The translations under genes were made by a program, and so were the position numbers. The notes below the pieces were generated by a model that saw nothing but the letters and a program-made list of their open reading frames with translations, was not told the DNA's origin and ran no database searches. A DNA stretch of 64,000 bases from Escherichia phage AV118: sequence record OR352948.1. One strand, given 5' to 3'. Of the stretch, positions 6,328-44,133 are shown piece by piece (position 1 is the stretch's first letter; each line of letters starts with the position of its first letter).

Positions 6328-6367
6328 ATTTCTCTCATTTAATTAGTTGGCCGTCCTTGGCATTATA

Positions 6368-11134: not shown

Positions 11135-11821
11135 TTAGAAGTCGTGAGTAGAATCGGCTTCCATCGCAATAACATAACTTACTTGAGAGCTTTCAAACTT
11201 GGCTGCAACTTTATCACCAGCTCCCCACAACATTACTTTATAGTTACCTGGCTGGATTTTCATATTAGCCATATTGATTACGAAGTTAAAGTTGTTAGAA
11301 CCATCATAATCGGTAAGAGTCAAAGAATACTTAGGACGAGTTAGTCCTGAATCTTCAACTTTATTATAGCCATTGATAACAATTTTACCATCTTTATTTG
11401 TAATAGCAATTGTATCAATCTGAAGACCACGTGAAACTCGAAGCAATTGTTGAAGGTCTTCAGCTTTAATTTCAGTAATCACAGAAGCTACTGGGAATTG
11501 AATTGGCTTATTAGGAAAAACAATTGTGCTCTTGTCAGCGGCAGGCCAATAAACTGTGGAACGTGTATCTGCAATTTTAATATTGCCATCAGTGTGCATT
11601 GAAATTTCAGCATCATCAGACACTAGACTCAAAATGCTTAAGAAGCTATTCAAATCATAAAGTGCTACGTCAAAATCAATTTCATCAGAGATATTTGCTT
11701 CCGCATAAGTGGTGCCATTAACTGCACGAGTCATAATAAATTTACCTTGACTCAGCAGAATGCCAGAGTTAATAGAAGCGAAGTTTTTCAGAATATTTAC
11801 GGTTTCACGGCTAAGTTTCAT
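11135..11821 (-). CDS. 45: sliding clamp
   Basis: 228-aa ORF; sequence and size match T4 gp45. Confidence 0.95.
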   Translation of the reverse strand: MKLSRETVNILKNFASINSGILLSQGKFIMTRAVNGTTYAEANISDEIDFDVALYDLNSFLSILSLVSDDAEISMHTDGNIKIADTRSTVYWPAADKSTIVFPNKPIQFPVASVITEIKAEDLQQLLRVSRGLQIDTIAITNKDGKIVINGYNKVEDSGLTRPKYSLTLTDYDGSNNFNFVINMANMKIQPGNYKVMLWGAGDKVAAKFESSQVSYVIAMEADSTHDF

Positions 11822-12708
11822 TTAGGTTTCCTATTAGCATAATAATTTGTCCAAGACCGGATAGCACCTTGGTATGATTCATCATTAAAACCATGCTGAA
11901 TTGCATGTTTTCTAAATGTAATATAACTTGGTTTTCCTAAAGCAATCCACAATTCCTTTAATTTTTGTTCATGAAATATCCATGTACCTCTAGCTTTAGA
12001 TTTTCTGAATTTATCCTTAAATTCTTTGGTTGCATTTCTTTTCGAAGCTGCGATAGAGGCCTTTGCTCTATTTTCAGGTTTAGACCAATACAATGTTTTA
12101 GATATTTTTATTTTATCTTTAACATTAGGAGAATTCATTATATCTTTAAATTTTAAAGCAAAATCTCTATCGCTAAACATTTTTTTAGAAAGAATAGAAA
12201 CTTTCTCTCTTCGTTCTTTGGTCCAATATGTTTTTTGAAATTCTCTAATTGCGTTTAAATGATTCTCCGACAATTTGCAATTTTTTCTAACACCGACGTA
12301 ATCTTCGTTTATTTCGTTTTTAGAAAGTTTTACTATTTTGCCTGTTTTTAAATTTTTATACGGTGCATATCCTTTAGCTGATATTCTAGACTTCTCGTTA
12401 GCATAAGCCTTATTAAAATATTTTTCATTTGAAACGGCTTTAACATTGAGTTGGAATAGTCTTTCTATTCTTCTAGGGTCTAATGTGGTTTCGCCTAAAA
12501 TTTTTACAGAATATTCGCCTTGGTCTATTAATCTGGTATATAAAGGAGAATACGAGGAATTAACACTACCGGTATATATTTTACCGGTAGAATCTTCAAT
12601 AATATCCTTTCCATTAAAATGACACGAAACTTTAGAACCTATATAATAACACGGGTATTCATTTTTAATCTCACGATTATAAAAGGTTATAAGATATATT
12701 AAATTCAT
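11818..12708 (-). mobile_element. GIY-YIG homing endonuclease gene (Seg-like), free-standing between rpbA and gene 45
   Basis: 296 aa from ATG 12708; N-term LIYLITF...YYIGSK; basic HTH-like C-terminus; paralogous to ORFs at 16570 and 23522. Confidence 0.6.
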
Positions 12709-12713
12709 AATTA

Positions 12714-13130
12714 TCAAGCAGCAACCATCTGCTTTTTAATAGTTTCAGGCAGTGATTCAATATATTCTGGAATTTTAGAAGCAACAATTTCGCCAGCTGC
12801 AATTAGTTGTTCGTCGGCATCAACACAGTAGGAATCTTCCAGACGCTCAGAACCGTCTTTATCAAGAACGATTTTTGCGCCAGCTTCAATAGAATCGTTA
12901 TAGTGCTTACGCATCAGATGAATCCACATATCAGATACATCGTTATCAATAAAACCATAAATCATAAAACGAGTTTCTTGTGGCAAAGATTGGAGTTTTT
13001 TAGCACTTGCGTCATCACAATGCAGGACCCATGCTTTACGAACACGATTATGGTTATGTGGGTTAGCGTCAGTACGGATAGAAGTAACTTTCAGATCAGC
13101 AGCAGTGAAACCTTTAGCAGTAGTAAACAT
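12714..13130 (-). CDS. rpbA: RNA polymerase-binding protein RpbA (by synteny)
   Basis: 138-aa ORF between gp46/45.2 and gp45 region; start uncertain. Confidence 0.5.
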   Translation of the reverse strand: MFTTAKGFTAADLKVTSIRTDANPHNHNRVRKAWVLHCDDASAKKLQSLPQETRFMIYGFIDNDVSDMWIHLMRKHYNDSIEAGAKIVLDKDGSERLEDSYCVDADEQLIAAGEIVASKIPEYIESLPETIKKQMVAA

Positions 13131-13142
13131 ATTATTTCTCTC

Positions 13143-13343
13143 TTATTCGTAGAAGTCGGTAACTGTCCATGCAGAATTGCGATTAGACATTATTTTATTA
13201 TACTCGTCTTTAAAAGCAGATTTGAGCATTTGTTCAGTAACAATATGTTCTTCACCTGAAAACGTATTGGTCAGAACATATTTTTTAATTTCAGGGACAA
13301 CAAGAAGATGTTGTCCGGTTGAATACTCCATGTTGTTCTCCAT
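13143..13343 (-). CDS. hypothetical protein (45.2-like)
   Basis: 66-aa ORF between gp46 and rpbA. Confidence 0.5.
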   Translation of the reverse strand: MENNMEYSTGQHLLVVPEIKKYVLTNTFSGEEHIVTEQMLKSAFKDEYNKIMSNRNSAWTVTDFYE

Positions 13344-13385
13344 TTAATTTGATGTGGTCATTATAACCACATCGTGTTAAAGCGT

Positions 13386-15074
13386 TTATGAAACAGTCAT
13401 TACCGTAAATCGTCCAACTTTGCTCATTTGAAGATGTTGTCCATAAGCTTGTGGGTCATGGTCTCTGTGACTAATTATAAACACGTTTGCATCGGTTAGA
13501 GAGTTAAGAATTGTTGAAATAGCTTTAATACCTTCAGAATCAGTCGCGGAATCCATGACTTCGTCCATAATTAATGTATTGATTCTAACACCAGAGACCT
13601 TTTCAGCAATATCTCGCCATGTAAACAACAACGCGATATCGATACGTGCTTTTTCACCTTGACTAAATGAAGCATAACTGAACTCTTCACGACCACGTGA
13701 TTTTATAGATTCATTGAATTCTTCGTCAATAGAAAACACGTAATCAGCTTCCATGATTTTAAGATAATGGTTAATCTGCTTGTTGAACAGAGGCACATAT
13801 TTTTTAATGATAGCACCTTTAATACCAGAATCTTTTAACATATCTGTGATAATACCACGATGGTATTTTTCAAGAACGATATCCGATTTTGTTTTAATGA
13901 TTTTATCAAGTTCTTTTTGAAGCAAAGCTATCTCATCGGCATGGTCGATAAATTCCGCTGAGGCTTGTTCTATTGCAGCTTTAACTTTCTTAGCTTTATC
14001 AATAGTGGCAATCATTGCTTGTTTCTTGGTACGAATATCAGATGCAAGGTCCTGTTTAGTCTTAACATTAGCTCTATATTCGTCCACTAGGACACTCAGA
14101 TTATCTCTGTGGCAGGTAAGTTGCTCGAATGAGTGATTACATTCATGAAGCTTATCGGTAATCTTAGAGACAATAGGATCACCCTGGTGCAACTGTGATG
14201 CGCAAGTAGGACATGTACCGCCATCATGATACATCTTAATAACTTTGTTGTATGAGTCAATTTTAGATTTAATCAAGAATGCTTCTTGTCCTATCTTGTT
14301 GAATGCCTCAGTAGGGTCTTCATCAAGAACGATATTAAGTAGTCGCTCATTAGCTTCTTCGATTTCTGCTTTTAATGAACGAGCTTCTTTAGCTAGGTCG
14401 TCATACATATTCTGTAGACGCGCTACATTATCACCAGATAATTTCTTTTGACGTTCGATATTCTCGTTATAAATCTTAATTTGTTGGATAACACCATCTT
14501 TCTTGGCATCGAGAACTTGTCCCTGGGAATTAAGTTCTCGAACTTGAGACTTATTGATTTTATCCATTTCAGCGAGTGTGCCGACTTCTAAAAGGTCTTC
14601 GACAAGTTTTCTACGAGCAGGGGTGCTAAGAGCCATGAAAGGGGTATACCCTGCCGTCCCAAGCACAACGATCTGTTTAAAAGACGCGTATGACATTCCG
14701 ATGCTACGTTCAAATTCTTCTTGGAAGTCACGACTGCTGGCAGATTCATCAAGACGAACACCGTCAACGGAGATTTCGAAAATATTGGGCTTTTGGCCAC
14801 GTTTAATGAAGTATTTTTTATCATCGAATTCCATCCAAAGCTCAACTAAGAGCTCTTTCTTGTTCGTGCTATTAATGATTTGTCCTTTCTTAACATCACG
14901 AAATGGTTTACCGAAAAGTCCGAAAGTAATGGCTTCTAACATCGTAGATTTACCACCGCCATTTTTACCAGTGATTAATGTCTTTTGAACTTTATCTAAT
15001 TGGATATCAATAGGATTCCCACCTACCGACATGATGTTTTGATAACGAACACGATTTAATTTAAATGATTTCAT
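13386..15074 (-). CDS. 46: recombination endonuclease subunit (Rad50/SbcC-like ATPase)
   Basis: 562 aa; Walker A GKNGGGKST, coiled-coil middle, Walker B IMDEVMD. Confidence 0.95.
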   Translation of the reverse strand: MKSFKLNRVRYQNIMSVGGNPIDIQLDKVQKTLITGKNGGGKSTMLEAITFGLFGKPFRDVKKGQIINSTNKKELLVELWMEFDDKKYFIKRGQKPNIFEISVDGVRLDESASSRDFQEEFERSIGMSYASFKQIVVLGTAGYTPFMALSTPARRKLVEDLLEVGTLAEMDKINKSQVRELNSQGQVLDAKKDGVIQQIKIYNENIERQKKLSGDNVARLQNMYDDLAKEARSLKAEIEEANERLLNIVLDEDPTEAFNKIGQEAFLIKSKIDSYNKVIKMYHDGGTCPTCASQLHQGDPIVSKITDKLHECNHSFEQLTCHRDNLSVLVDEYRANVKTKQDLASDIRTKKQAMIATIDKAKKVKAAIEQASAEFIDHADEIALLQKELDKIIKTKSDIVLEKYHRGIITDMLKDSGIKGAIIKKYVPLFNKQINHYLKIMEADYVFSIDEEFNESIKSRGREEFSYASFSQGEKARIDIALLFTWRDIAEKVSGVRINTLIMDEVMDSATDSEGIKAISTILNSLTDANVFIISHRDHDPQAYGQHLQMSKVGRFTVMTVS

Positions 15075-15325
15075 ATGTATTCTCTTCGAATGAAGTCCTC
15101 TACATATTTTAACATGTCATCCCTATCAGCAAAATATTCATCTAGTTCTGCATACATAACAACACCTGGTGCATACTCACAGGTAACATACATTGTTCCA
15201 AAGAAACGAGGAGTTGATTCCTCGTAATTCTCAGTCCATTCAACGATACCAATATAACCGTCACCAATACTAAATTCATGACGATGGATTTCATAATCAG
15301 TCTTCGTCATTATACGCATCCTCAA
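15071..15325 (-). CDS. hypothetical protein (46.1-like)
   Basis: 84-aa ORF between gp47 and gp46. Confidence 0.5.
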   Translation of the reverse strand: MRMRIMTKTDYEIHRHEFSIGDGYIGIVEWTENYEESTPRFFGTMYVTCEYAPGVVMYAELDEYFADRDDMLKYVEDFIRREYI

Positions 15326-15554
15326 TACACGCTTCAGCCATTTTAAGAATAGAGCCAGGAGTATCGTTGTCCATTATATTAAAGCTAAATTCAATAGCCC
15401 AGTCAGTGCAGACATGAACTGCTTTAACTTCATTGCCTTCAACGCGTAATGGCTCAATCCAATACTTGATAGTGTTCTCGAATCCATCGTCATCTTTAAC
15501 GTCCATTTCAACTTCAAGCCTGAGTCCAGCATTGTTAAATTCATCTAAAGTCAT
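15297..15554 (-). CDS. hypothetical protein (46.2-like)
   Basis: 85-aa ORF, overlaps neighbours by a few nt. Confidence 0.5.
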   Translation of the reverse strand: MTLDEFNNAGLRLEVEMDVKDDDGFENTIKYWIEPLRVEGNEVKAVHVCTDWAIEFSFNIMDNDTPGSILKMAEACIEDAYNDED

Positions 15555-16573
15555 TGTGTTGCCTCAATATAAAGTTCGTTGGAATATTTGACCAGCGCTT
15601 CTCTGTCTTCATCTGAGATATCTGGAATCGCGTCAATATATTCTTTAATGATATCTTGAAGTGATTTAATCTCGATTTCCTGGTCGTCATCAGATTCAAC
15701 ACTGTTATCAACTTTAGAAACCATACGAAGAGAGTGAACTACTTTTTCAAGTTCAGATTCAAACTTAGTCAACTCTGAATCAATTTCTGATACTATAACA
15801 CGTACGGCTAGATTAGTATAATCAGAATAATTGATTTTGCCTTTAAATGGATAAGTGATTCGTCGATGCCATGTTGTTTCATTAGGAATAAATTCCATAC
15901 GTTCAACATCAGTGTCAAATACCCAGAATCCGCGAGGGTCGTTCTCATCACCTGCAGTAAGGGTCCATGGTGTCCCAATATATTTGACGTTAGCAGCTTC
16001 AGAGATTGTGTGGAAGTGGCCAGACCAGACTTGTTTATAGGTCTTTAAGAAATCAGGTTCAAGCCCATGAGACTTCATTCCTTTATAGAAATAGAAGCCA
16101 TTTAATTCCCAGTGCCCAACACAATACGCTGCAGAAGAAGTCTTGATGTGCTCTAAGATTTCACCTGTATTTTCTTCACACATCCATGGAATCAAATCAA
16201 TCAAGCACCCATCAAAATCTACTGTAGTTGGCTTATCATAAATTATTACGTTTTTACGATGGCTCAATAATTCTTGAACAGTGTTAGGATATAAGGTTGT
16301 TTTATAAAAGAGATCATGATTCCCAAGTATTGTATGGACTGTTATACCAGCGGCTTCCACCAAATCAAACATTTCACGCGTGAATTCCATACAACGTTGT
16401 GTGGTGTGGGCTCTGACATCAAATGTATCACCATATTGAATCCATGTTGTTATTCCATTTGCGACGGAATAGTCGATCATTTGTCTGAAACCGTCACGTT
16501 GTATAGCTTGAATCCAATCGTCGTCTTTTTTGACGCCTAGATGCAAATCGCCTATATTAAGTATTTTCATCAC
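15551..16573 (-). CDS. 47: recombination endonuclease subunit (Mre11/SbcD-like phosphoesterase)
   Basis: 340 aa; ILNIGDLHLG, GNHD metallophosphatase motifs. Confidence 0.95.
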   Translation of the reverse strand: MMKILNIGDLHLGVKKDDDWIQAIQRDGFRQMIDYSVANGITTWIQYGDTFDVRAHTTQRCMEFTREMFDLVEAAGITVHTILGNHDLFYKTTLYPNTVQELLSHRKNVIIYDKPTTVDFDGCLIDLIPWMCEENTGEILEHIKTSSAAYCVGHWELNGFYFYKGMKSHGLEPDFLKTYKQVWSGHFHTISEAANVKYIGTPWTLTAGDENDPRGFWVFDTDVERMEFIPNETTWHRRITYPFKGKINYSDYTNLAVRVIVSEIDSELTKFESELEKVVHSLRMVSKVDNSVESDDDQEIEIKSLQDIIKEYIDAIPDISDEDREALVKYSNELYIEATQ

Positions 16574-17373
16574 ATACCTTTAAATTTGGAGTAAATTATA
16601 TTGTGGTACGATATATCAGGAAACCCTTTATCGACCGCAATTTTTCTAAACTTATTAGGACTTATTTTACCACACTCCATCCATAATGCAAACAACTCGT
16701 CAAAATGCTCATATGCTGGACCTCGACGAGCTTTTGACACAGCAGCACTTATGCGAGCCTTTTTCTCAGAATCAAGGTTTTTAAGAGAATTACTTATTTT
16801 ATTTTTTTGCTCTTCTGAATTGAAGGTGCCTTTTTCCCAGCCTAAAGGTTGGCTTCCTTCATGGAACATTTTTCTTGAAGTTCCATTGGTATACCATATT
16901 TTACCTTTATTGTGCCCTGATGCTTTATATTTTGGTGAGCGTCCTTTTATAAATCCTTCAGGTATAGTAGGAGCAAATGTTTGTTCAAGGGTTTCTGGGT
17001 TATACGAATGTATGTTATTTTTGGCGTTATGAGACCCATATAATGGGTGATTTTTACCAGAAACATCACGCCCAAAGAAACCAGTTGGTGATGCCAAAGA
17101 CATATTCATATACAAAGGATTTTTATGAGCTTGAACTCTAATTTGATAGTCCTTTTCCACCTTTAAAGCTTCTTCTCGTGTTGGATGTTCGCTCAAAATA
17201 CAAGAATCAAACAACGTAGGATTTTCTAAAAGTTCTTTGTTATAAATTTTACGATAGGCTTTAGATAGAATAGTACCATGATACCCGTTTAAATGTTTTT
17301 CTAAGCTAGTCGAACCTATGTAAAAAGGTGGTAGCTTATCTCCAGAATAAATTGTCAAATAGACTATAAACAT
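16570..17373 (-). mobile_element. GIY-YIG homing endonuclease gene (Seg-like) at the locus where T4 carries alpha-glucosyltransferase
   Basis: 267 aa from ATG 17373 with SD AAAGGAGA; VYLTIYSG..FYIGST; NUMOD3-like GKNHPLYG and GHNKGKIW repeats. Confidence 0.65.
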
Positions 17374-17427
17374 ATATTTCTCCTTTGATTTAAGGAGATT
17401 ATAACACGCCTTTAATGAAGCGTAAAC

Positions 17428-17456
17428 AAAAAAAGGAAGCACTAGGCTTCCTTTTG
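17428..17456. terminator. bidirectional intrinsic-terminator-like hairpin (A7-GGAAGC-loop-GCTTCC-T4)
   Basis: Inverted repeat flanked by A-run and T-run. Confidence 0.5.
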
Positions 17457-17518
17457 ATATCGCCTAAGGCTTATAGGTCCTTAGAAATCTGGATGTTCAT
17501 CTTCAACAAAGCTAGTAT

Positions 17519-17734
17519 TCATCGCTGCCACCATTTTTTAAGTTGATGTGAATCTACCCATACCTTCGCTACAGGCTCAATATTAAAAATACCATCGGAC
17601 GTACGTCCAATCATTTTGTATTCGGTTTCAGATTGCTTGATACAAATATCACCATAAGAGCGAAGTCTAAAAGCGGCTCCTACTAGAAGCCGTTTAAACT
17701 TTGTTTGAACTAGCGCCATTAATGATGTCCTCAA
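17519..17734 (-). CDS. hypothetical protein
   Basis: 71-aa ORF. Confidence 0.45.
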   Translation of the reverse strand: MRTSLMALVQTKFKRLLVGAAFRLRSYGDICIKQSETEYKMIGRTSDGIFNIEPVAKVWVDSHQLKKWWQR

Positions 17735-18017
17735 TAGCCTGACGAGTAGTAACCCACTGGATTTTAATTAACTTGTCATTATATGGTTGTCTTAGAATAT
17801 CCCGAGATTTCTTAATAGCATATTCGTAAGCTTCGAAGTTGTTTTGAATTGCTGCTTCTTGAGCATGAGCATAAAGACGGTTTAGTTCAAAACGATTCTT
17901 TTTAAGAATCTTTTCGGATTTTTTACGTGCTTCAGCTTCATTTTTCTTTTGGATTTCTTGTAGCATTTTAGCTACTGCATCTTCTGCTTCTTTATTTTCA
18001 ATAATCTCGGTAGTCAT
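17694..18017 (-). CDS. hypothetical protein (coiled-coil rich)
   Basis: 107-aa ORF. Confidence 0.5.
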   Translation of the reverse strand: MTTEIIENKEAEDAVAKMLQEIQKKNEAEARKKSEKILKKNRFELNRLYAHAQEAAIQNNFEAYEYAIKKSRDILRQPYNDKLIKIQWVTTRQAIEDIINGASSNKV

Positions 18018-18018
18018 A

Positions 18019-18234
18019 TTATCTCATTAAATTAAAATAAAAACGTCCGTCCTCTTCAATACAGAACTCATACTCAACCGGAGTCCCATTTATCGAAAAT
18101 AACACGTCATGTGGGTTCAAAGGGTCGATGTCAAAATTAATTTTAAATTCACGACCCAACAGTTTTACCAAATAAGGGATTGCTTCGTCAAAAGGTTCTT
18201 CTAAGTAGTTAGAGATGTCAATTGTCATCCTCAT
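18019..18234 (-). CDS. hypothetical protein
   Basis: 72 aa from ATG 18234 (MRMTIDIS...), ORF-track N-terminal extension overlaps gp55. Confidence 0.45.
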
Positions 18235-18793
18235 ATAAAAAATCCAAACTAGGCGAATCGCTAACAACTTCCTTCTTTTCAGCCCCAGGAGCTTTATAAG
18301 CGGATTCTTCATAATGCGTCATTTTATCGTAGATGTCTTGAATAAACGTTTCATCTACCAACGCTACCATATCATCGTCATGACTGTCGTAGACATTATG
18401 AACGAAGTAACTATATTTCTTTGCAACTTCCTTACGTTCTTTTTTGATACGTTGGACAAAAGCATTAAAACAAGCTCGAGTTATGTATGCATGTGGGTTA
18501 TTGTACTTAGTTTCGTCGAAATTATGAAGTCCCTTAATAGAGGCTTCAATCCCATCTGCAATCATCTCCTGCTTCCAAGACTGGGTATATCCTGAAAAGT
18601 TGAAACGTTTGGACAGGCCTTCGGCGATAAGCATAATTGCTAAACCGATGGTATCATTCTGACGAATAATTTTGTTTGGGTCTTTATTATTTAAGAGCTC
18701 CTTTTTCCACTCGATTATAGCGGCGAGAAGCTCTTTATTATTCACATAGTTATTTTTAGGTTTTTGTTCAGTCATAAGTACCTCTTGGCTCAA
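18218..18793 (-). CDS. 55: late-transcription sigma factor
   Basis: 191 aa; sequence and size match T4 gp55. Confidence 0.95.
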
Positions 18794-18930
18794 TTCATAG
18801 GTCTATTATATCATAATATTTAGAGACCTATCTTAAAGCACGAGATACTATCAAAGATACGTAACTTTCATAAAGTTGTCGACTTAAAATTCACCAAACT
18901 TTTCTTCGGTTATAGCGATTCAAGATAGTT

Positions 18931-19158
18931 TCATTCTATTTCCTTTGCTGCAAATAAGGCAGCATCCAACGAATCAAATTGGTCAACAAAATCAATATTT
19001 AACGCATCGTCAACCGTAGCATATAACCACCATTGTTTGAATTCATATTCAAGAATAAATCCAGGCCCTTCAATCTGAGGAAGACCTAGGCTATTTGTAC
19101 CAACTTCGTAACCAGCTAGACGGAGGTCATTAATCAAAGTTTCTGTTAATACGCTCAT
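18931..19158 (-). CDS. hypothetical protein
   Basis: 75-aa ORF. Confidence 0.45.
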   Translation of the reverse strand: MSVLTETLINDLRLAGYEVGTNSLGLPQIEGPGFILEYEFKQWWLYATVDDALNIDFVDQFDSLDAALFAAKEIE

Positions 19159-19487
19159 TTTACCGCCTTAACAATTTTCAAGTCAACGAATTTTTTCTTA
19201 CGTTGATTTTTCATACGACGGATAGTCTTTTCAGAGATTTCATGTTTCTGATAAGCTTTAGATTCAACACCAAATGCAGCAACGTCAAATTCAGAAAGAA
19301 TATATTGTACTAGAATTTCACGAATAGAATTACGTCCAATTTTCTGGTCGTGTTTTTGCATGATTTCATAAAGACGGAATTCCCACGCGTCAAGAACTTG
19401 AGGAGTAACAATATTGCCGGATTCCAGAAGAGCAACAACTTTATCGAAAGCGAAAGAATTAACTACGTTTTTGATTTTAGTAGACAT
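19155..19487 (-). CDS. hypothetical protein
   Basis: 110 aa from ATG 19487 with SD GAGGAAA; follows duplicated early promoter. Confidence 0.5.
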   Translation of the reverse strand: MSTKIKNVVNSFAFDKVVALLESGNIVTPQVLDAWEFRLYEIMQKHDQKIGRNSIREILVQYILSEFDVAAFGVESKAYQKHEISEKTIRRMKNQRKKKFVDLKIVKAVK

Positions 19488-19524
19488 ATTATTTTCCTCG
19501 GTTATTTTATTATCCAATGAGAGC

Positions 19525-19554
19525 ATTATACTCTGCTCTCAAGAGTTTGTAAAT
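19525..19554 (-). promoter_or_regulatory. sigma70/T4-early-type promoter TTTACA-N17-TATAAT
   Basis: On minus strand: TTTACA, 17-nt spacer, TATAAT; 49-bp element identical to 48178..48226. Confidence 0.6.
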
Positions 19555-19556
19555 CG

Positions 19557-19757
19557 TTATCCGAACTTTTTAGCGCCTTTCCAGCCTTCGTACATAACTG
19601 CACAAGTCAGTAGTACAGCATGCTGGCATTCTTTGTATTTGTAAATCCAGAACCAGCGTAAGAAGTCTTCATCCTCAACGCCGTTGAGTTTCATATTGGC
19701 AAAGAATTCGGCACGTTCTTCACGAAGCTTTTGCGATAACATAGATTCAGGATTCAT
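19557..19757 (-). CDS. hypothetical protein
   Basis: 66-aa ORF. Confidence 0.45.
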   Translation of the reverse strand: MNPESMLSQKLREERAEFFANMKLNGVEDEDFLRWFWIYKYKECQHAVLLTCAVMYEGWKGAKKFG

Positions 19758-19981
19758 TTTGTGTTCCAGGCCCCATTTTCATCGATGAACTTAATCCAGT
19801 CATTTACAGACCATTTAGTTGTATCGCCCTTTGGATTAACATTTAAAGTATATAATCCCTGCTTAAAAAGCATTCGTTTGATATTCATAATTTCCTCAAC
19901 TGTAACGATAACATTCGTTAGCTTTACGTTTGGCTTCAGTATGAGAAGTATTATAATCATAATCTTCTTTACTGTAAACAT
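19754..19981 (-). CDS. hypothetical protein (start uncertain)
   Basis: 75-aa ORF; N-terminal part overlaps next gene, real start probably internal. Confidence 0.35.
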   Translation of the reverse strand: MFTVKKIMIIILLILKPNVKLTNVIVTVEEIMNIKRMLFKQGLYTLNVNPKGDTTKWSVNDWIKFIDENGAWNTK

Positions 19982-20188
19982 CTTTTTTCAACTTACGAAC
20001 TTCTTTGCGGAGTTGTCGATTCATTTCATTCTTGACTTCAGAATCAACGCCTTTCATACGTTTCCATTTATCTGAGCGGAAGATGTTTTCAACCATGTCT
20101 TTGTGGCTAACACCGTCAGGAGCTTTACGCTTACCAAAATAGTCGTAATCGCGAACTTTCAAATCTTTACGACGATATGTTTTACCCA
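19896..20188 (-). CDS. hypothetical basic protein
   Basis: 97 aa from ATG 20188 (MGKTYRRK...), SD GAGG. Confidence 0.5.
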
Positions 20189-20196
20189 TAAGTACC

Positions 20197-20445
20197 TCAG
20201 AGGTTGATTGATACAATGCGTTTGATAAAATTCACTTCACTTACTGAAAGGTCTTTAAGACCGATTGATTCTAAACGCTGAGTAAGCGTCAACATCGTGA
20301 TATAGTCCCATTGTGTTTTAGACGTTTGATAAGTACGGACGCCATTAGCAATTTCAACATGCAAATCGGAAATGGTAACGAATACCGGTCGCTCGTCATT
20401 AACTTTAAGGGTTAGAACAACTTTCTTTGAATCTAAACTAATCAT
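20197..20445 (-). CDS. hypothetical protein
   Basis: 82 aa from ATG 20445 (MISLDSKK...), SD GAGGAAA. Confidence 0.5.
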   Translation of the reverse strand: MISLDSKKVVLTLKVNDERPVFVTISDLHVEIANGVRTYQTSKTQWDYITMLTLTQRLESIGLKDLSVSEVNFIKRIVSINL

Positions 20446-20612
20446 TTTATTTTCCTCTGTGGTAGATGGTGTTAATCTTAACATATCTATCGAGGATGTA
20501 AACTGTTTTATGAAAATATTTTTTGATTTGAGAGGGGCACAAGGAGATAGTGAAGTGAAGATTCCAATGGATTATATTAGAAATGAGATAAAGAAGACCA
20601 GGCGGCACCTGG

Positions 20613-20921
20613 TCAATCTTCTATGATATCAGAGTCATATCCTAATGAAATCAAGGACTTTTTAAACTCTGCAATATTCTTTTGTTTCTTATCATTTAAA
20701 AATATGACAGGATAACGAATATTAAGTGAAGTGAATCCTGCACGTTTAGCAAGAGATACGATTAAAGGACGGTCATATTCAATCTTACCATTATTAGTGA
20801 GGACTTTATAAAATGTATAAGGAGCATTGAGCTCCTTTAAAAGTTTTGTAACAGTATAACATCCTGGACAACGTCCAACTTCTTCAGGGATGCCATAAAT
20901 TTCAATCTTGTTGTGTTCCAC
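20613..20921 (-). CDS. nrdH: glutaredoxin/NrdH-like redoxin
   Basis: 102 aa; CPGC redox motif; position downstream of nrdG as T4 nrdH. Confidence 0.6.
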   Translation of the reverse strand: MEHNKIEIYGIPEEVGRCPGCYTVTKLLKELNAPYTFYKVLTNNGKIEYDRPLIVSLAKRAGFTSLNIRYPVIFLNDKKQKNIAEFKKSLISLGYDSDIIED

Positions 20922-20923
20922 AA

Positions 20924-21136
20924 TTATTCCTTGCCAAGAACAGAATTCAGTTTATTAGTAATTTTGTCCAAACGTTCATTGAATTCGCTGGAGGATAAAC
21001 CCTTTTCCGGAGAAATTAAACTAATCACGAAAAATACAACAGTAAAAGGAATAAGAAAAATAGCTCCAACTGCCATAAATGAAAAGAACGTTACAGTTGT
21101 AAGAAAATCAGCTAAACCTTTACGAAATTTATACAT
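20924..21136 (-). CDS. small membrane protein
   Basis: 70-aa ORF with two hydrophobic segments. Confidence 0.45.
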   Translation of the reverse strand: MYKFRKGLADFLTTVTFFSFMAVGAIFLIPFTVVFFVISLISPEKGLSSSEFNERLDKITNKLNSVLGKE

Positions 21137-21246
21137 ATTTGCCCTTAATTAACTAAGCATTGATAAGCACTAAACTATATTGCGAATAAAATTCTGGACC
21201 AAAACGAAAAATCATATCATTTATAGTATCCATAATGTAATTCAAT

Positions 21247-21717
21247 TTAATCATGTTTCCACACCCCATCGGTATTTGACCAAAGTCGCTGATTATCTGA
21301 TCCTCGCCACAGCTTTTTAGTCGGAAGATTTTTCTCATACTTCCCATCAATAATAACATCAACATATTTAAGCATTTCTAGTTGTTTAATATCTTCAAAA
21401 TTATATCCTGTCCACAACCAAATGCTTTTATTGGGATAAAGATTTTTAATAGTTTGAACCACAGAGTGAATCACATCTCTGTTATCAGGATAGAGAGGGT
21501 CACCTCCGGTTATAGTCAATCCTTCTATATAATCATTATTCAAACATTCAATTAATTGTTCTAGTGTTTCACCAGTGAATGGAATACCATTTCTAGCATT
21601 CCATGTTGATTTATTATAACACCCTTCGCATTTATGCAAACAACCCGTAACGAAAAGAACGACCCTGCAACCAGGGCCATTCACAAAATCGCAAGGATAA
21701 AATCTATCATAATTCAT
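21247..21717 (-). CDS. nrdG: anaerobic ribonucleotide reductase activating protein (radical SAM)
   Basis: 156 aa; CLHKCEGC (Cx3Cx2C) motif; ATGA coupling with nrdD. Confidence 0.9.
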   Translation of the reverse strand: MNYDRFYPCDFVNGPGCRVVLFVTGCLHKCEGCYNKSTWNARNGIPFTGETLEQLIECLNNDYIEGLTITGGDPLYPDNRDVIHSVVQTIKNLYPNKSIWLWTGYNFEDIKQLEMLKYVDVIIDGKYEKNLPTKKLWRGSDNQRLWSNTDGVWKHD

Positions 21718-23531
21718 TGGTGTTTAACCCTATGCATGATTTCTTTATTTTTACCGAGATTAAATCCGCGTTCGTTCGGATTTCCCAAATAACCGCATGT
21801 TCTTCTTATGGTGTTCATCTTTTTAGGATCAGTTTCTCCACAGATAGAACAAACAAATCCGTTTTCAGTAGGAGTCATTTCATGGGTACTTCCACATGTA
21901 AAACATTTATCTACTGGCATATTAACACCAAAATAATCTAAATGTTGTGCAGCATAATCCCACACGGCCTCAAGTCCTTTTAAGTTATTTTTCATATCAG
22001 GAAGTTCAACATAAGAAATGTGACCACCTGTCGCAATGAAATGATATGGCGCTTCACGAGAAATCTTTTCAAACGGAGTAATATTTTCTTCTACTGAAAC
22101 GTGGAAACTGTTAGTGTACCAGCCTTTATCGGTAACATCTTTTACACTTCCATATTTTTCTGTATCGAGTTTACAGAAGCGATAACAAAGGTTTTCAGCA
22201 GGAGTCGAATATAAACTAAAAGCAAATCCAGTTCTTTCGGTCCACTGCTTAAGATGAGCATTCATTTTAGTTAAAATTTCTTGCCCAATATCACGACCGA
22301 CAAGAATATTCAATTCGTGAATACCAATGTATCCTAAAGACACTGAACTTCTACCGTTTTTAAATAACTCAATTATGTCGTCATCAGGTTTAAGACGAAC
22401 CCCGAATGCACCTTCTTGGTAAAGAATAGGAGCTACAGTTGCTTTAACACCCTTTAAAGAACTAATTCTACACATCAAGGCTTCAAAACACAGATCCATT
22501 CGTTCATTGAATAATTCAACAAATTTCTGTTCATTGAACTGTGTTCCAATATAAGAATCTAATGCGATACGAGGAAGATTCAGTGTTACAACGCCGAGAT
22601 TATTACGACCGTCAAGAATTTCATTTCCAGTTGAATCTTTCCATACGCTCAAGAAACTACGGCAACCCATCGGAGAAACTGGAACTGAAGAACCGGTAAT
22701 AGCTTTATTATTCTTAACTGAAATAATGTCAGGATACATTCTTTTGCTTGCACATTCTAACGCAAGTTGTTTAATATCATAGTTTGGATCATCTTTATAA
22801 AGATTAACACCTTCTTCAAAAAACATAACAAGCTTAGGGAAAATAGGAGTTATTCCATCACGTCCAAGGCCTTTAATGCGGTTTTTAAGAATTGCCTTCT
22901 GAATCATTCGTTCAGTCCAGTCAGTTCCTGTACCAAATGTAATTGTTACAAAAGGTGTTTGTCCGTTTGAACTAAAGAGAGTATTTACTTCATATTCATA
23001 AGCTTGGAATGCATCGTATACATCTTTTTCTGTTTTAGATTGAGCATAATTCAACGCATCAGCGATTTGCCATTTTTCTGCATCCTCAATATGTTTTGCA
23101 TAGGTGCGTTTAACATAAGGAGAAAGTACTTTATCTACATTAGCAAAAGTCGTTCCGCCGTATTGATGGGAAGCAACCTGTGCAGTAATTTGTGCCATAA
23201 TTGCAGTAGCAACACCGATTGATTTAGGAGTTTCAATCTGTGCATTACCAAGCTTAAATCCATTCTCAAGCATTCCTTTTAAATCTACTAAACAGCAATT
23301 AGTAAAAGGCAATGATATACTGTAATCTAAATCGTGAAAATGAATTAATCCGACATTATGAGCATTTACAATATGGCTCGGAAGAATACTACAAGCGATA
23401 TGTTTAGAAACAATACCGGCCATTAAATCTCTTTTTGTTGGAAAGACACGAGAATCTTTGTTGGCATTTTCGGTATTTAATTCTTTATCTTTATTTGAAA
23501 TAAAATTTAAAACATCTTTCTCTAAAGACAT
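21714..23531 (-). CDS. nrdD: anaerobic ribonucleoside-triphosphate reductase (class III)
   Basis: 605 aa; C-terminal glycyl-radical motif RRTCGYLG; uninterrupted ORF. Confidence 0.95.
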   Translation of the reverse strand: MSLEKDVLNFISNKDKELNTENANKDSRVFPTKRDLMAGIVSKHIACSILPSHIVNAHNVGLIHFHDLDYSISLPFTNCCLVDLKGMLENGFKLGNAQIETPKSIGVATAIMAQITAQVASHQYGGTTFANVDKVLSPYVKRTYAKHIEDAEKWQIADALNYAQSKTEKDVYDAFQAYEYEVNTLFSSNGQTPFVTITFGTGTDWTERMIQKAILKNRIKGLGRDGITPIFPKLVMFFEEGVNLYKDDPNYDIKQLALECASKRMYPDIISVKNNKAITGSSVPVSPMGCRSFLSVWKDSTGNEILDGRNNLGVVTLNLPRIALDSYIGTQFNEQKFVELFNERMDLCFEALMCRISSLKGVKATVAPILYQEGAFGVRLKPDDDIIELFKNGRSSVSLGYIGIHELNILVGRDIGQEILTKMNAHLKQWTERTGFAFSLYSTPAENLCYRFCKLDTEKYGSVKDVTDKGWYTNSFHVSVEENITPFEKISREAPYHFIATGGHISYVELPDMKNNLKGLEAVWDYAAQHLDYFGVNMPVDKCFTCGSTHEMTPTENGFVCSICGETDPKKMNTIRRTCGYLGNPNERGFNLGKNKEIMHRVKHQ

Positions 23532-24343
23532 AATTCTAATTTATCCTTTTGAAATTCTTCGTCTAAATATGGGTTCCAACCCATTTTAAACCTTTTGATG
23601 AAATTATCAATTCTAAATTTCGGTAAATTTAACTCCGCAAAAATAGATGATTTACTTTTAAAATCTGGACCTAAATAATCATATAAAATTTCTGCGTATT
23701 TTAACCATAATATATAAGTACCAGATTTAATTGCTCTAGGAGTTTTCCAAGGTTTTACGCCGTACATCGGATTTCCACTTCCTTTATGCCTGATAGAAGA
23801 TGAAATTCCAATTTTAATTTTAGCTTCCTTTGTGTGCGAAAATCCATGATGTGGATTTTCTTTCCAGTATTTTTTAGAAGCTTCTGATATTTTCTTTCTG
23901 GCTAAATTAGTATGATGCTTTCCATAAAATCCATGATTTTTACCTTTATTACGATTTCTTTTAATCATGGTTATTGATTGCTTTTCTCTAGTTTCTTTAG
24001 AAGGAGAAACACCGTACGTTGTAAATTGACCATTAGCATATGCTAAATTAAAATACTCTTTATTCCATATATCTTTTTCTATATTCTTTTGAAATTCAGC
24101 TTCAATGCTAGTTATTTGTTCATCTCCGACTAATTGAAAATATAATATTTCAACTTTCGGTGTTTCTTTCAACAGAGCTTTTTGAAATTCGGAAGATGAC
24201 GAAGACGAATAATAAAATTTACCATTTTTATCAATAATATTCGTTCCGTCAAAAGTGCAATTGGTTTTACTTCCAATATAATAATATGGCGGGGTTTTAG
24301 CATTAATTCTACTAATAAATGATAGTTTATATACTACATTCAT
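23522..24343 (-). mobile_element. GIY-YIG homing endonuclease gene (Seg-like), free-standing between gene 49 and nrdD
   Basis: 273 aa; VYKLSF..YYYIGSK; NUMOD3-like GKNHGFYG, GSGNPMYG; paralog of 11818 and 16570 ORFs. Confidence 0.65.
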
Positions 24344-24813
24344 TTTAAACTCTTTCTAAGCTGCTTCTTAAATGAAGCTATTAATTGTGTTTTGGTGTCA
24401 GATTCATTATATTCAAATCCTCTTTGAAGCATCTCGGCCATCATTTCCTCTTTTCCTAAACGAGAAAATTCCTTTGATTTATCTCCAACGAAGTTAGGGT
24501 GAATATTATTTTGGGTGTAATCGGATTTTAAATAAGTAAGTAAATTTTCTAACCATTCAAGATAATCAACGCCTTGTCCCTTTAAACCAGAGCGATTAAA
24601 TTTATGTTTCATTTGACCTTCTGCAGCATTGCAGAGATTACAAAGCAATCCACGTACCTTTCCTGCTTTTGGTCCATTTAATTCATGGTCATGATCGAGG
24701 TGATTAGCTTGAACATCAGGATTTAGTTCTCGTTGGCAAATTAAGCATTTACCGTTTTGTGCATCATAAAATTTCTGTTTTTCTTCTTTATATAATTTGC
24801 CAGTCAATAACAT
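24340..24813 (-). CDS. 49: endonuclease VII (Holliday junction resolvase)
   Basis: 157 aa; Zn-binding CLICQ...HLDHDH...CNLCN; sequence matches T4 gp49. Confidence 0.95.
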   Translation of the reverse strand: MLLTGKLYKEEKQKFYDAQNGKCLICQRELNPDVQANHLDHDHELNGPKAGKVRGLLCNLCNAAEGQMKHKFNRSGLKGQGVDYLEWLENLLTYLKSDYTQNNIHPNFVGDKSKEFSRLGKEEMMAEMLQRGFEYNESDTKTQLIASFKKQLRKSLK

Positions 24814-24819
24814 AATAAA

Positions 24820-24852
24820 ACCCTTACCTTAAATAGATAAGGGTATTTATTA
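24820..24852 (-). promoter_or_regulatory. hairpin sequestering gene 49 SD, preceded by late-promoter-like AATAAATA
   Basis: ACCCTTA...TAAGGGT inverted repeat 7 nt upstream of ATG; AATAAATA on minus strand at 24852..24845. Confidence 0.4.
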
Positions 24853-24855
24853 TTT

Positions 24856-25341
24856 TCAAGTATTGTAAAACATTTGATGCAATCGCTTATATTGCCGAAT
24901 CATTTGGTCAGAAAAAGAAATTTGAGTTTCAAGCCATTCAATGTATTCTGCGGCAGCTTGCATCAGGTTACCTTCATAGCCATCGTTATTTTCTTGTGCA
25001 GCTAATTTAGCTAATGCGTATGAAATACGTTCACCTTGAAAATCGGCTTTAGGCTTCTGAACAACTTGATTAGTTCGCTCTACAACTTCTTCAATTTCGC
25101 CATTTTCGACTGATTCAGTATTCCACAAACACCAATACGTAATTGGCTTATCGTAGATGTTAATAATCTTTCCATCAGAAAGTTCAATTTCAATAATTCC
25201 AGTATCAGGTTCTATATCATCTTCACATTCTTTTGCAAGTTCACGAACTTTAAAGACAGTACCTGCACTAAGTTCCGGCCAGTAATTACACAGCCCTGTA
25301 TCAGCACGATTAATTCTAAACCACTTATCTACTGTAATCAT
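24856..25341 (-). CDS. hypothetical protein (pin-like by position and size)
   Basis: 161 aa from internal Met; lies where T4 pin lies; no motif support. Confidence 0.4.
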   Translation of the reverse strand: MITVDKWFRINRADTGLCNYWPELSAGTVFKVRELAKECEDDIEPDTGIIEIELSDGKIINIYDKPITYWCLWNTESVENGEIEEVVERTNQVVQKPKADFQGERISYALAKLAAQENNDGYEGNLMQAAAEYIEWLETQISFSDQMIRQYKRLHQMFYNT

Positions 25342-25464
25342 GTCCCATCTCCATATCAATTAAGTCATTTATCGTTGGTTCATTATACACCGTTTCTTCA
25401 TCAGTGTAAACCGGTTCTTCCGGCTCTGGCTCTACAGTTTCCCATCTAGCCGCCCACCAAGGTT

Positions 25465-25785
25465 TTATAGCGTAATCCATTCTCTTACTGTCTGAGTTAC
25501 TACACGTTCTCGAAGCTCAACCAGTTCAACGGTAGGAACTGCATAATACCAATCAGAATGGTAAGAACCTGAGCGAGATTCATTTACAGCCACATGTACA
25601 TTATGTTTTGGACTAAAATAAACACACTGACGATATTGGCATTTACCATCTTGCACCCAGTCTTCTATTTCGACAGGTTTAAGATAATCGGAAAAATCGA
25701 AATCATAGTTTTCTGAAAATGCATCATGGTCTTCAATGATTTCACTCAGAACTGCATCAACATCTAATTTATTTTCAATAGTCAT
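25465..25785 (-). CDS. hypothetical protein
   Basis: 106-aa ORF. Confidence 0.5.
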   Translation of the reverse strand: MTIENKLDVDAVLSEIIEDHDAFSENYDFDFSDYLKPVEIEDWVQDGKCQYRQCVYFSPKHNVHVAVNESRSGSYHSDWYYAVPTVELVELRERVVTQTVREWITL

Positions 25786-25795
25786 TTTTCACCAA

Positions 25796-26005
25796 TTAAT
25801 TTCGCAATTTATTAAGTTCTTCATAATCAATCCAGGATTCTAATCCTGATGGCAAATCAGATTCAATTTCCCAAAGAAGTTCTTCAATTTTATGAAGACG
25901 ATCTAGTTCTTCAGCAGGAATAGTAACCATTGACGGAGCTTTTGCTACATTAATATCGTAAATCATATTTACCCCAGTTTGACCATACAATCGCCGTATT
26001 TCCAC
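25796..26005 (-). CDS. hypothetical protein
   Basis: 69-aa ORF. Confidence 0.45.
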   Translation of the reverse strand: MEIRRLYGQTGVNMIYDINVAKAPSMVTIPAEELDRLHKIEELLWEIESDLPSGLESWIDYEELNKLRN

Positions 26006-26184
26006 TTAGAAATAGACTTTTCACCGTTAGAATAATAAACTTCAAGTTTAGCACGATTATTTTTAATTTGAATAACCTTTGCTGTCATCAAAGTTCCATA
26101 CCCATAATAAACTGCAACTTCATCACCTACATATACCGCGCTTCCGCGGTAATCGTGAATATAGTCAGTTCCTTCGAGCATCAT
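25969..26184 (-). CDS. hypothetical protein
   Basis: 71-aa ORF. Confidence 0.45.
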   Translation of the reverse strand: MMLEGTDYIHDYRGSAVYVGDEVAVYYGYGTLMTAKVIQIKNNRAKLEVYYSNGEKSISKWKYGDCMVKLG

Positions 26185-26444
26185 TTAAAATATTCTCGCA
26201 GTTGGTCAAATCCACCAATATGACTTCCATCAGGAGCAAATACTTGTGGCATTGTCAAACCAATTTGAGTATCACGACCTAGTTTAGCCAGAAGCTCAGC
26301 GATTTTCTCATCATCAAAAACACCTTTTTCCGGCATAATGTTGATAAATTCAAACGGCTGTTTCTTCACGGTCAAAAGACGTTTTGCATTATCGCAATAC
26401 ACACATTTATGAATGTTGCTATCATAACCATATACTTTAAACAT
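26181..26444 (-). CDS. nrdC: thioredoxin (glutaredoxin-like)
   Basis: 87 aa; CVYC active site; sequence matches T4 NrdC. Confidence 0.9.
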   Translation of the reverse strand: MFKVYGYDSNIHKCVYCDNAKRLLTVKKQPFEFINIMPEKGVFDDEKIAELLAKLGRDTQIGLTMPQVFAPDGSHIGGFDQLREYFK

Positions 26445-26466
26445 ATTATTCCTTAATTCCTAGTAC

Positions 26467-26688
26467 TCATTTAAAAGTCTCGTCGTAATCAAGACTTTGG
26501 CCCGTTTGTTCTTTATGTTTGTATATAATATCACTTACTTCTGATAGCATATTTTTATATGAACGAGTTAAAGCAGATTTAAGCACGCTGTATCTATCAG
26601 GAAATTTACCATGTTCATTATAATACGCTATTGCTAATTCACGGACTGCCTTTTCAGCAGTCTCCGTATATTCTTTACGCTTTGTCAT
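26467..26688 (-). CDS. hypothetical protein
   Basis: 73-aa ORF. Confidence 0.45.
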
Positions 26689-26690
26689 TT

Positions 26691-43756: not shown

Positions 43757-43757
43757 A

Positions 43758-44063: not shown

Positions 44064-44091
44064 AATATTCTCCTCATGTTTTAATAGGACT

Positions 44092-44121: not shown

Positions 44122-44133
44122 AGTTTTGCGAAA

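Follow-up and report, generated by a model that had tools for sequence, protein, structure and literature searches.

Sequence analysis of Escherichia phage AV118 (sequence record OR352948.1) suggests with high confidence that three of its genes, here named ORF1, ORF2, and ORF3, belong to a SegG-like branch of the GIY-YIG superfamily, encode free-standing homing endonucleases, and spread by homing. The window, which is the whole stretch of 64,000 nucleotides analysed, comes from a Mosigvirus (RB69-like). Three intact minus-strand ORFs with ATG starts were found at the positions given in the initial annotation. ORF1 (11818..12708, 296 aa) has rpbA on one side and gene 45 on the other; ORF2 (16570..17373, 267 aa) lies directly upstream of gene 47; ORF3 (23522..24343, 273 aa) has gene 49 on one side and nrdD on the other. 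The ORF map agrees with the neighbours named earlier, as each ORF is directly upstream of 45, 47, or nrdD. The reported YYIGSK-type N-termini were also found, as CYYIGSK in ORF1, FYIGST in ORF2, and YYYIGSK in ORF3. All three lie outside any intron or intein and are flanked by conserved genes whose orientation (minus) they share, and each overlaps or abuts the start of its downstream gene. The ORF list also contains longer alternative starts, TTG (12717) and GTG (17442). These are unlikely, because the ATG starts yield the family-conserved N-terminus MNxVY/MFIVY, and because the GTG start of ORF2 is inside a terminator-like hairpin. No exact copy of the late promoter TATAAATA was found close to ORF1, ORF2, or ORF3. 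Profile and PHROGs searches of ten other mid-sized ORFs in the window identified no other endonuclease genes.

The three proteins had been described as paralogous. They are distant homologues but not recent duplicates, and are better categorized as three distinct lineages of one SegG-like clade. ORF1 shares 28% identity with ORF3 over 190 aa (E=7e-13) and 26% with ORF2 over the full length (E=9e-9). The pairwise comparison of ORF2 and ORF3 was not significant, and these two are connected via profiles only: an HMM of ORF2 homologues alone, run against all 268 six-frame ORFs in the window, recovered ORF1 (E=1e-4) and ORF3 (E=1.7e-4) and no others. The N-terminal domain of ORF3 shares 40% identity with T4 SegG over 126 aa (E=3e-17), and that of ORF1 36% over 136 aa (E=6e-8). 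ORF1 also matches phrog_7504, "homing endonuclease" (2e-16). In other genera, counterparts of each lineage are found in the same slot.

The catalytic domain of the whole SegG-like clade is missed by Pfam. The GIY-YIG family PF01541 scored 17.8 bits for ORF2 (E=0.004), below the gathering cut-off of 22.6, and had no match in ORF1 or ORF3; a precomputed PF01541 match exists for one of 120 listed ORF2 homologues. The NUMOD3-like repeats that had been assigned to all three proteins (Pfam PF07460, threshold 20.4 bits) hold for ORF3, which scored 33.1 bits in two stretches; ORF2 was sub-threshold at 15.8 bits, and ORF1 had none. A Foldseek search against the PDB gave no significant match. NCBIfam gave a weak sub-threshold match to "group I intron endonuclease" for ORF3 only (23.8 bits vs 56). 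PADLOC found no defence system, and its sole match was the generic "HEase" model in the C-terminal region of ORF2.

The α/β fold of the GIY-YIG domain, a three-stranded sheet flanked by helices, is present. Comparison with the canonical GIY-YIG profile by hhalign (E=4e-5 and 1e-5) aligned the YIGS motif, the Glu (E75 in I-TevI), and the Asn (N90). Y5, Y22, G24, E81/82, and N99 are invariant in all 23 sequences of the SegG-like alignment; Y5, Y18, G20, E73, and N90 are invariant in all 99 sequences of the ORF2 family. The loss of catalytic residues, which would speak against endonucleases, was not seen: both families retain the catalytic residues Tyr, Tyr, Glu, and Asn without exception. At the position of I-TevI R27, the SegG-like family has no clearly conserved Arg. 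Two other basic residues are near-invariant in it: Arg12, located between the GIY and YIG motifs, and Lys26, after YIGS. In ORF2, the family-conserved Lys26 was aligned by hhalign opposite I-TevI R27. One reading of these differences, possible but rather doubtful, is that the SegG-like clade, which takes in ORF1-3 and the large ORF2 family missed by Pfam, is a GIY-YIG subfamily of its own whose active site is rearranged, and in which the nuclease and a pre-diverged "immunity" 5' segment of the essential gene downstream make up a two-part cassette. The first-helix Arg would then be replaced by a basic residue from elsewhere, either Lys26 or Arg12, the latter in a short helix that connects the GIY and YIG strands. 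If this is true, target sites could be read straight from genome comparisons.

The three ORFs share a common architecture at three independent loci: a nuclease gene, a conserved gene directly downstream, and a divergent patch confined to the 5' end of that gene. At the first locus, the ORF1 stop overlaps the gene 45 start (ATGA). Junction alignment of five ORF1+ and three ORF1- genomes showed that the 42-bp rpbA-45 intergenic region of the ORF1- phages is replaced in the ORF1+ phages, and that the first ~57 nt of gene 45 (11765..11821, minus) form a divergent, ORF1-linked patch. Compared with RB69, the first 60 nt of gene 45 are 73% identical, and the remainder is 96-100% identical. ORF1 is carried by 9 of ~153 related records, and a 59% identical homologue occupies the same slot in Tequatrovirus PaulHMueller. 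The gene is intact in the AV118 window and in AV109, and is independently frameshifted in AV115, JM17, and AV111, as expected for the late phase of the homing-endonuclease life cycle. The frameshifts are located in poly-A runs, and sequencing error could explain part of them.

At the second locus, the ORF2 stop TGA shares 1 nt with the gene 47 ATG. ORF2 is a GIY-YIG endonuclease gene encoding a helix-turn-helix-like domain at the C-terminus, and is found in 4 of ~152 related records. Its C-terminal region is similar to the HNH enzymes MobE and MobD, and therefore modular shuffling is suggested. The ORF2-linked patch covers ~360-420 nt of gene 47, about 120-140 codons (16150..16573, minus). It shares 60-71% identity with RB69, JM17, HX01, and ST0, compared with 92-100% deeper in the gene. 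The patch is equally divergent from gene 47 of the Tequatrovirus/Dhakavirus phages that have an ORF2 homologue, and all sampled lineages are equally distant as donors. The upstream flank (17374..17700, minus) is also divergent, with ~62% identity to ORF2-less Mosigviruses, and the identity returns to 97-100% from 17700. This flank holds an a-gt.3-like ORF of 71 aa (17519-17734), and a-gt.2 is absent, by comparison with the RB69 annotation. Sequence reading and a consensus scan identified putative expression signals for ORF2 on the minus strand (17379..17455). Consensus matches are a terminator-like hairpin (17455-17431), a Sigma-70/T4-early-like promoter, TTTACG-17-TATAAT (17426-17398), and a hairpin pairing with the AAGGAGA ribosome-binding site (17398-17379). 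Overall, promoter-like sites are no more frequent in this region than in shuffles, and the promoter, terminator, and hairpin may function as their names imply.

At the third locus, the ORF3 ATG lies in an ATGA overlap with the gene 49 stop, and nrdD uses the same overlap in empty-site phages. The 3' end of ORF3 overlaps nrdD by 10 nt. ORF3 is carried by 48-49 of 701 related records, and is under purifying selection. The first ~74 codons of nrdD (~225 bp, 23300..23531, minus) form a patch strictly linked to ORF3, which probably marks where the target site lies in phages that lack ORF3. The patch is at least 96% identical in all six sampled ORF3+ genomes, from two genera, and ~69% identical in three ORF3- genomes. 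There are 28 non-synonymous and 24-37 synonymous codon differences in the 74 codons, followed by identity. The database-wide distribution is bimodal, with 49 records at or above 95%, 3 at 80-90%, and 939 at 60-80%; ORF3 itself is also found in 49 records, at a protein identity of at least 90%. In a search for a donor of the patch, the closest nrdD among ORF3-less phages, in Klebsiella phages, was only 72-76% identical. The cassette of ORF3 and the nrdD patch is 100% identical in Tequatrovirus FL08 and this Mosigvirus. Just upstream of nrdH (window 18959-20189), the backbones of the two phages are only ~74% identical.

The third locus is part of a recombination tract (22950..26691), as determined from a mismatch map, segment identities, a 100-bp identity profile, and gene 49 bins. 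The tract is mosaic: the window is AV115-identical to ~22950, then resembles FL08/JM17 across ORF3 and the 5' end of nrdD, and is of T4 type (Tequatrovirus/HX01-like) from gene 49 through nrdC. The T4-type block from gene 49 to nrdC (24340-26691) was considered as an ORF3 co-conversion tract and was rejected. The block is present in HX01, where ORF3 is missing, and gene 49 is of RB69 type in other ORF3+ Mosigviruses, so that the link between block and ORF3 is not strict. T-even genomes are highly mosaic, and general recombination could yield some tracts without an endonuclease.

Conservation of the ORFs at the same positions in all relatives was not observed. They are sporadic and missing from most relatives, where the junction alignments showed clean empty sites. 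These sites are precise; their junctions were both aligned and mapped. Judged from the sequences, the three ORFs are likely mobile. The claim that they are active or recently active is best supported for ORF3, with its identical cassette in another genus, its intact state in 7/7 genomes examined, and its dN/dS of 0.08-0.37. The interval from ORF1 to ORF3 (~12.5 kb) shares 90-99% identity with RB69, as is usual for a Mosigvirus, and therefore there is no sign of joint movement of the whole block.

The following mechanism is proposed. Each protein would consist of an N-terminal GIY-YIG nuclease joined by a flexible linker, either NUMOD3 or beta-rich, to a C-terminal DNA-binding domain. When a related phage without the gene infects the same cell, the enzyme would cut this rival in or near the 5' end of the adjacent 45, 47, or nrdD. 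Resection would follow, and T-even recombination would repair the break with the endonuclease-carrying genome as template. The endonuclease gene and its flanking DNA would be copied into the rival, resulting in intronless homing, co-conversion, and local marker exclusion. The carrier might be immune through the divergent 5' allele of the downstream gene, which would travel together with the endonuclease gene. ORF1 and ORF3 appear to be promoterless cassettes, translated within existing operons; ORF2 may use its own terminator, early-type promoter, and a hairpin masking the ribosome-binding site. Marker exclusion by these ORFs, as initially proposed, is suggested by extension from T4 SegG and SegF biology (PMC2988022).

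The three ORFs might instead be inactive relics, kept only because their 3' ends supply the translation start region of 45, 47, and nrdD, with the patches as old scars that say nothing of present mobility. This is improbable. Three of the five ORF1 carriers sampled indeed have a frameshifted copy, the canonical Arg of the active site is not clearly conserved, and the overlap of each ORF with the downstream gene start would make clean deletion costly; such retention, via embedded promoters, has been reported in a T4 review (PMC2988022). However, all three ORFs are intact in the AV118 window, ORF3 is under purifying selection and identical in two genera, and the four catalytic residues are invariant among homologues. 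Moreover, the type of N-terminal domain is shared with T4 SegG, which is listed as active (PMC2988022), and genes 45, 47, and nrdD are expressed in ORF-less relatives. It is still less probable that the patches and cross-genus tracts came from ordinary homologous or illegitimate recombination of co-infecting T-even phages, with the nuclease genes as mere passengers: the block in ORF3-less HX01, the known mosaicism, and the replacement of another ORF3 allele by the window allele, relative to the nearest backbone relative AV115 (an exchange between two carriers, for which homing into an empty site cannot account), would fit, but the single architecture at three independent loci, the exact co-occurrence of the nrdD patch and ORF3 in 9/9 genomes directly examined (database counts of 49 each, three records intermediate), and the described pattern of nuclease genes bounding exchanged segments (PMC10448857) argue against it.

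Several known systems are close to ORF1-3. Among free-standing GIY-YIG enzymes, SegG is listed as active, with gene 32 as its target (PMC2988022). T4 SegG (gene 32.1, between genes 59 and 32) shares the N-terminal type MNxVY...R...PPYYYIGSK...Y.SS...E...YFN, and its C-terminal end is also common to ORF3. Like ORF1-3, it is free-standing and directly upstream of a conserved replication gene; it has been described as promoterless (PMC2988022), and ORF1 and ORF3 look likewise. However, the sites and presumed targets of ORF1-3 are 45, 47, and nrdD. SegG has 210 aa, whereas ORF3 has inserted NUMOD3 repeats and 273 aa, and ORF1 and ORF2 have a C-terminal helical DNA-binding domain of another kind. 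I-TevI, encoded by the T4 td intron, is the structural prototype of the GIY-YIG homing endonucleases. Its GIY/YIG tyrosines, Glu75, and Asn90 are matched in ORF1-3, and the order of catalytic domain, linker, and DNA-binding domain is alike, although ORF1-3 are not intron-encoded. Sequence similarity to I-TevI was undetectable by phmmer or hmmsearch, and the SegG-like domain differs by a ~20-residue insertion after the YIG motif as well as at the R27 position.

Free-standing endonuclease genes in the same neighbourhoods include T4 mobC and phage U5 segH (nrdG/nrdD slot), which are among the anaerobic ribonucleotide reductase genes like ORF3, and T4 mobB (alpha-gt/alpha-gt.2 slot), which is in the alpha-gt region by gene 47 like ORF2 (PMC2988022). 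In contrast, ORF3 is on the opposite side of nrdD, at the 49/nrdD junction, and ORF2 is directly at gene 47. The mobB and mobC products are HNH enzymes, whereas Mob likeness is limited to the C-terminal DNA-binding region of ORF2. The "HEG islands" of Barth, Dunham and Seed (2023) have nuclease genes at genetic-exchange boundaries (PMC10448857). Both they and ORF1-3 show endonuclease genes beside essential genes, at the edges of segments exchanged between phages; the ORF1-ORF3 interval differs in not appearing to move as one block.

The closest GenBank records annotate two of the three ORFs as "hypothetical protein", the RefSeq record of ST0 leaves ORF3 unannotated, and ORF2 homologues are mislabelled as "HNH endonuclease". 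Searches of the literature did not find these particular genes described. Their kind of biology is already well established, and ORF1-3 add further cases of free-standing homing endonucleases. They are a clear but ordinary case of homing-gene spread among T-even phages, which refines rather than changes the current understanding. The extents of the patches suggest the probable cut regions, which are the first ~55 bp in gene 45, the first ~400 bp in gene 47, and the first ~225 bp in nrdD. Free-standing homing endonucleases influence gene survival in mixed T-even infections, and the three loci are clean natural examples that comprise filled sites, empty sites, and the patch alleles linked to them, among phages that are now collected for therapy.

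The 15 kb around the three endonuclease ORFs share 98-99% identity with Escherichia phages AV115, AV114, and AV109, and 94-97% identity with ST0, HX01, and other RB69-like Mosigvirus (Straboviridae, Tevenvirinae). Its genes all lie on the minus strand and keep the T-even order 44, 45, rpbA, 45.2, 46, 46.1, 46.2, 47, a-gt.x, 55, 55.x, nrdH, nrdG, nrdD, 49. ORF1 (11818-12708, minus strand, 296 aa), ORF2 (16570-17373, minus strand, 267 aa), and ORF3 (23522-24343, minus strand, 273 aa) are all intact, exactly where the initial annotation had placed them. Their ATG codons are the right starts, because the family-conserved N-termini MNLIY, MFIVY, and MNVVY result; an alternative GTG start of ORF2 is disfavoured because it falls inside the terminator hairpin upstream. 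Every ORF adjoins or overlaps the gene downstream: the ORF1 stop and the gene 45 start overlap (ATGA), the ORF2 stop shares one base with the gene 47 ATG, and ORF3 overlaps nrdD by 10 nt. The ORF3 ATG and the gene 49 stop overlap as ATGA, and in ORF3-less phages the nrdD ATG takes this position. Elsewhere in the window, the minus strand carries tRNA-Arg (tct) and tRNA-Met (cat) at 50162-50413.

General family models detected these proteins poorly. The Pfam GIY-YIG model scored 17.8 bits on ORF2, under its 22.6-bit cut-off, and missed ORF1 and ORF3; NCBIfam gave just one weak, sub-threshold match, and neither single sequences nor a 23-sequence profile retrieved I-TevI in PDB sequence searches. 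In PHROGs, ORF1 and ORF3 were assigned to phrog_7504 ('homing endonuclease'), and ORF2 to phrog_10820, whose label 'HNH endonuclease' is wrong for ORF2. In tblastn comparisons with T4 SegG, the N-terminal domain of ORF3 matched at 40% identity over 126 aa (E=3e-17), that of ORF1 at 36% over 136 aa (E=6e-8). A review of T4 counts SegG among the active free-standing GIY-YIG endonucleases, with gene 32 as its target (PMC2988022). A small canonical GIY-YIG alignment that includes I-TevI, compared profile to profile, matched the SegG-like family (homologues of ORF1 and ORF3) at E=4e-5 and the ORF2 family at E=1e-5, with the YIGS motif, the catalytic Glu, and the Asn in register. Residues Y5, Y22, G24, E81/82, and N99 are invariant among 23 SegG-like sequences, as are Y5, Y18, G20, E73, and N90 among 99 ORF2-family sequences. 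The SegG matches and the profile-profile comparison are among three lines of evidence that establish the GIY-YIG fold of ORF1-3. The NUMOD3-like repeats previously noted in all three proteins are solid for ORF3, but not for ORF1 or ORF2. ORF1-3 are new Seg-type free-standing GIY-YIG homing endonucleases, nearest to T4 SegG.

Neither family has a conserved Arg opposite the catalytic R27 of I-TevI. In the SegG-like family, Arg12 is near-invariant and lies between the GIY and YIG strands in a short helix, and Lys26 is near-invariant as well; in the ORF2 family, hhalign aligns a conserved Lys26 with R27. T4 SegG has the same Arg12/Lys26-type arrangement as the ORF1-3 clade. Since SegG is listed as active by the T4 review, the absence of the R27 Arg would characterise the clade as a whole rather than point to decay.

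The three proteins are only distantly related. ORF1 shares 28% identity with ORF3 over the first 190 residues (E=7e-13) and 26% with ORF2 over the full length (E=9e-9), and ORF1 and ORF2 have a common C-terminal motif, LWxxxGKxSxxxFRKxAxxxGFxDxSY. No significant pairwise similarity was found between ORF2 and ORF3. When the 268 six-frame ORFs of the window were searched with an HMM built from database homologues of ORF2 alone, the sole matches were ORF1 (E=1e-4) and ORF3 (E=1.7e-4). ORF1-3 therefore represent three lineages within one clade, not recent duplicates. The term 'paralogous', as first applied to them, holds in the sense of distant relationship but overstates their closeness.

All three ORFs are sporadic. 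ORF1 was found in 9 of ~153 records with flanks at least 95% identical; ORF2 in 4 of ~152 records only (AV109, AV114, AV115, and AV116); and ORF3 in 48-49 of the 701 records matching its flanks. The empty sites in relatives are precise. The ORF1-less phages have a 42-bp rpbA-45 spacer instead, the ORF2-less phages have the small genes a-gt.2 and a-gt.3 in place of ORF2 and its upstream flank, and in the ORF3-less phages 49 and nrdD overlap directly. Counterparts occupy the same slots in other genera: for ORF1 in Tequatrovirus PaulHMueller (59% identity), for ORF2 in Tequatrovirus AndreasVesalius (65%) and Dhakavirus KIT01 (57%), and for ORF3 in Tequatrovirus FL08 (100%). Many GenBank records name the ORF3 product 'homing endonuclease' or 'SegG homing endonuclease'; for ORF1 and ORF2, BASEL-collection phages have the label 'putative homing endonuclease' and the closest records the label 'hypothetical protein'. 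No published description of these genes was found in the literature. In the ST0 RefSeq record (NC_041990.1; positions 16929-17736 of the extracted locus), an intact ORF3 homologue with 96.7% protein identity is unannotated, in the gap between nrdD and gene 49. The ORF3-carrying phage vB_EcoM_G8 (NC_054915.1) spreads the 2-kb query region over 3.05 kb in two pieces (43054-46106 in its own coordinates), and so apparently has ~1 kb of additional sequence inserted close to nrdD, ORF3, or gene 49.

At all three loci, the ORF is accompanied by a foreign-looking allele (a patch) at the 5' end of the downstream gene. The first ~57 nt of gene 45, including a TCT-to-AGC serine codon switch, have 73% identity to the ORF1-less phages, versus 96-100% in the remainder. 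The first ~360-420 nt of gene 47 have 60-71% identity to the ORF2-less Mosigviruses, rising to 92-100% deeper in the gene, and are equally far from Tequatrovirus and Dhakavirus gene 47. The first 74 codons of nrdD differ from those of both RB69 and Tequatrovirus RB18 by 28 amino acids and 24-37 synonymous codons; beyond this stretch the sequence turns identical to RB18. The nrdD patch has at least 96% identity in six of six ORF3-carrying genomes from two genera, and ~69% in three ORF3-less genomes. Its database-wide distribution is bimodal (49 records at 95% or above, 3 at 80-90%, and 939 at 60-80%), and the count of 49 equals that of the ORF3 carriers. There is no comparable patch on the gene 49 side of ORF3, where both genera have almost the same sequence over the final ~110 nt of gene 49, a natural homology arm. 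This asymmetry suggests that the endonucleases would cleave ORF-less phages in the 5' portion of the downstream gene, and that carriers would be immune owing to their patch allele. Such a model agrees with free-standing endonucleases described as cutting hundreds of bp or more from their own gene, with co-conversion of the flanks (PMC2988022).

Two further divergent stretches were observed. In gene 46 (window 13400-13600), JM17 has 66-81% identity to the window over ~200 bp and RB69, HX01, and ST0 have 96-99%; here a further small patch has diverged in JM17, not in the window. In nrdG, ~100 bp (window 21450-21550) have 10-13 mismatches to AV109, JM17, AV111, ST0, and FL08 and none to AV115; this is a short mosaic patch unrelated to ORF1-3.

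Between 20950 and ~22950 the window and AV115 have essentially the same sequence; from ~22950 through ORF3 the window matches FL08 and JM17 with 0-2 mismatches per 100 bp, and its mismatches to AV115 reach 17 per 100 bp. Gene 49 and 1.9 kb beyond are T4-type, with 97% identity to RB18 (Tequatrovirus) and HX01 (Mosigvirus); gene 49 is RB69-type in other ORF3-carrying Mosigviruses. This T4-type block (gene 49, pin, 49.1, 49.2, and nrdC; window 24340-26691) is replaced by another, partly non-homologous block in RB69 and in the nearest backbone relatives, AV115 and AV109, and is a mosaic module boundary adjoining ORF3. The ORF3 region has therefore passed between backbones more than once, also across genera. 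Part of this exchange need not be endonuclease-driven, since the T4-type block is also found in HX01, which lacks ORF3. In seven of seven genomes ORF3 is intact, with dN/dS of 0.08-0.37, which argues for a functional protein. ORF1 is intact in the window and AV109, and carries independent poly-A-run frameshifts in AV115 (+4), JM17 (+1), and AV111 (-1), the expected pattern of an element drifting to loss in some lineages, although homopolymer sequencing errors are possible.

ORF1 and ORF3 have no obvious expression signals of their own and overlap translationally with their neighbours, resembling segG and other genes described as promoterless cassettes (PMC2988022). Upstream of ORF2, 145 bp hold a terminator-like hairpin with a 10-bp stem (17455-17431), a candidate sigma-70-like, early-type promoter (TTTACG-17-TATAAT with an extended -10 TG; 17426-17398), and a hairpin in which the AAGGAGA ribosome-binding site forms the 3' arm (17398-17379). 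A read-through transcript would have this site masked; in a transcript starting at the ORF2 promoter, the 5' arm would be missing and the site free. The promoter is a consensus match of a kind no commoner here than in shuffled sequence. An early-type promoter would be unusual for ORF2, because none of the endonuclease-specific promoters of T4 is early-type (PMC2988022).

Another endonuclease candidate was observed in the ST0 locus, where an unannotated 238-aa ORF (5763-6479, plus strand of the locus) lies between 45.2 and 46 on the opposite strand. Its HNH-like motif (ERHHIIPQCLGGSDDALNLVDLTPEEHYLAH) is accompanied by repeated zinc-finger-like CPHCG motifs, and the product is probably a homing endonuclease of the Mob type; the window lacks this ORF.

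In summary, the SegG kinship, the sporadic distribution, and the linked patches support the interpretation of the initial annotation that ORF1-3 are homing endonucleases and likely mobile. We infer that they may have nuclease activity and might mediate marker exclusion. The result is a sound and tidy one, of a kind to be expected in a T-even phage on biological grounds.
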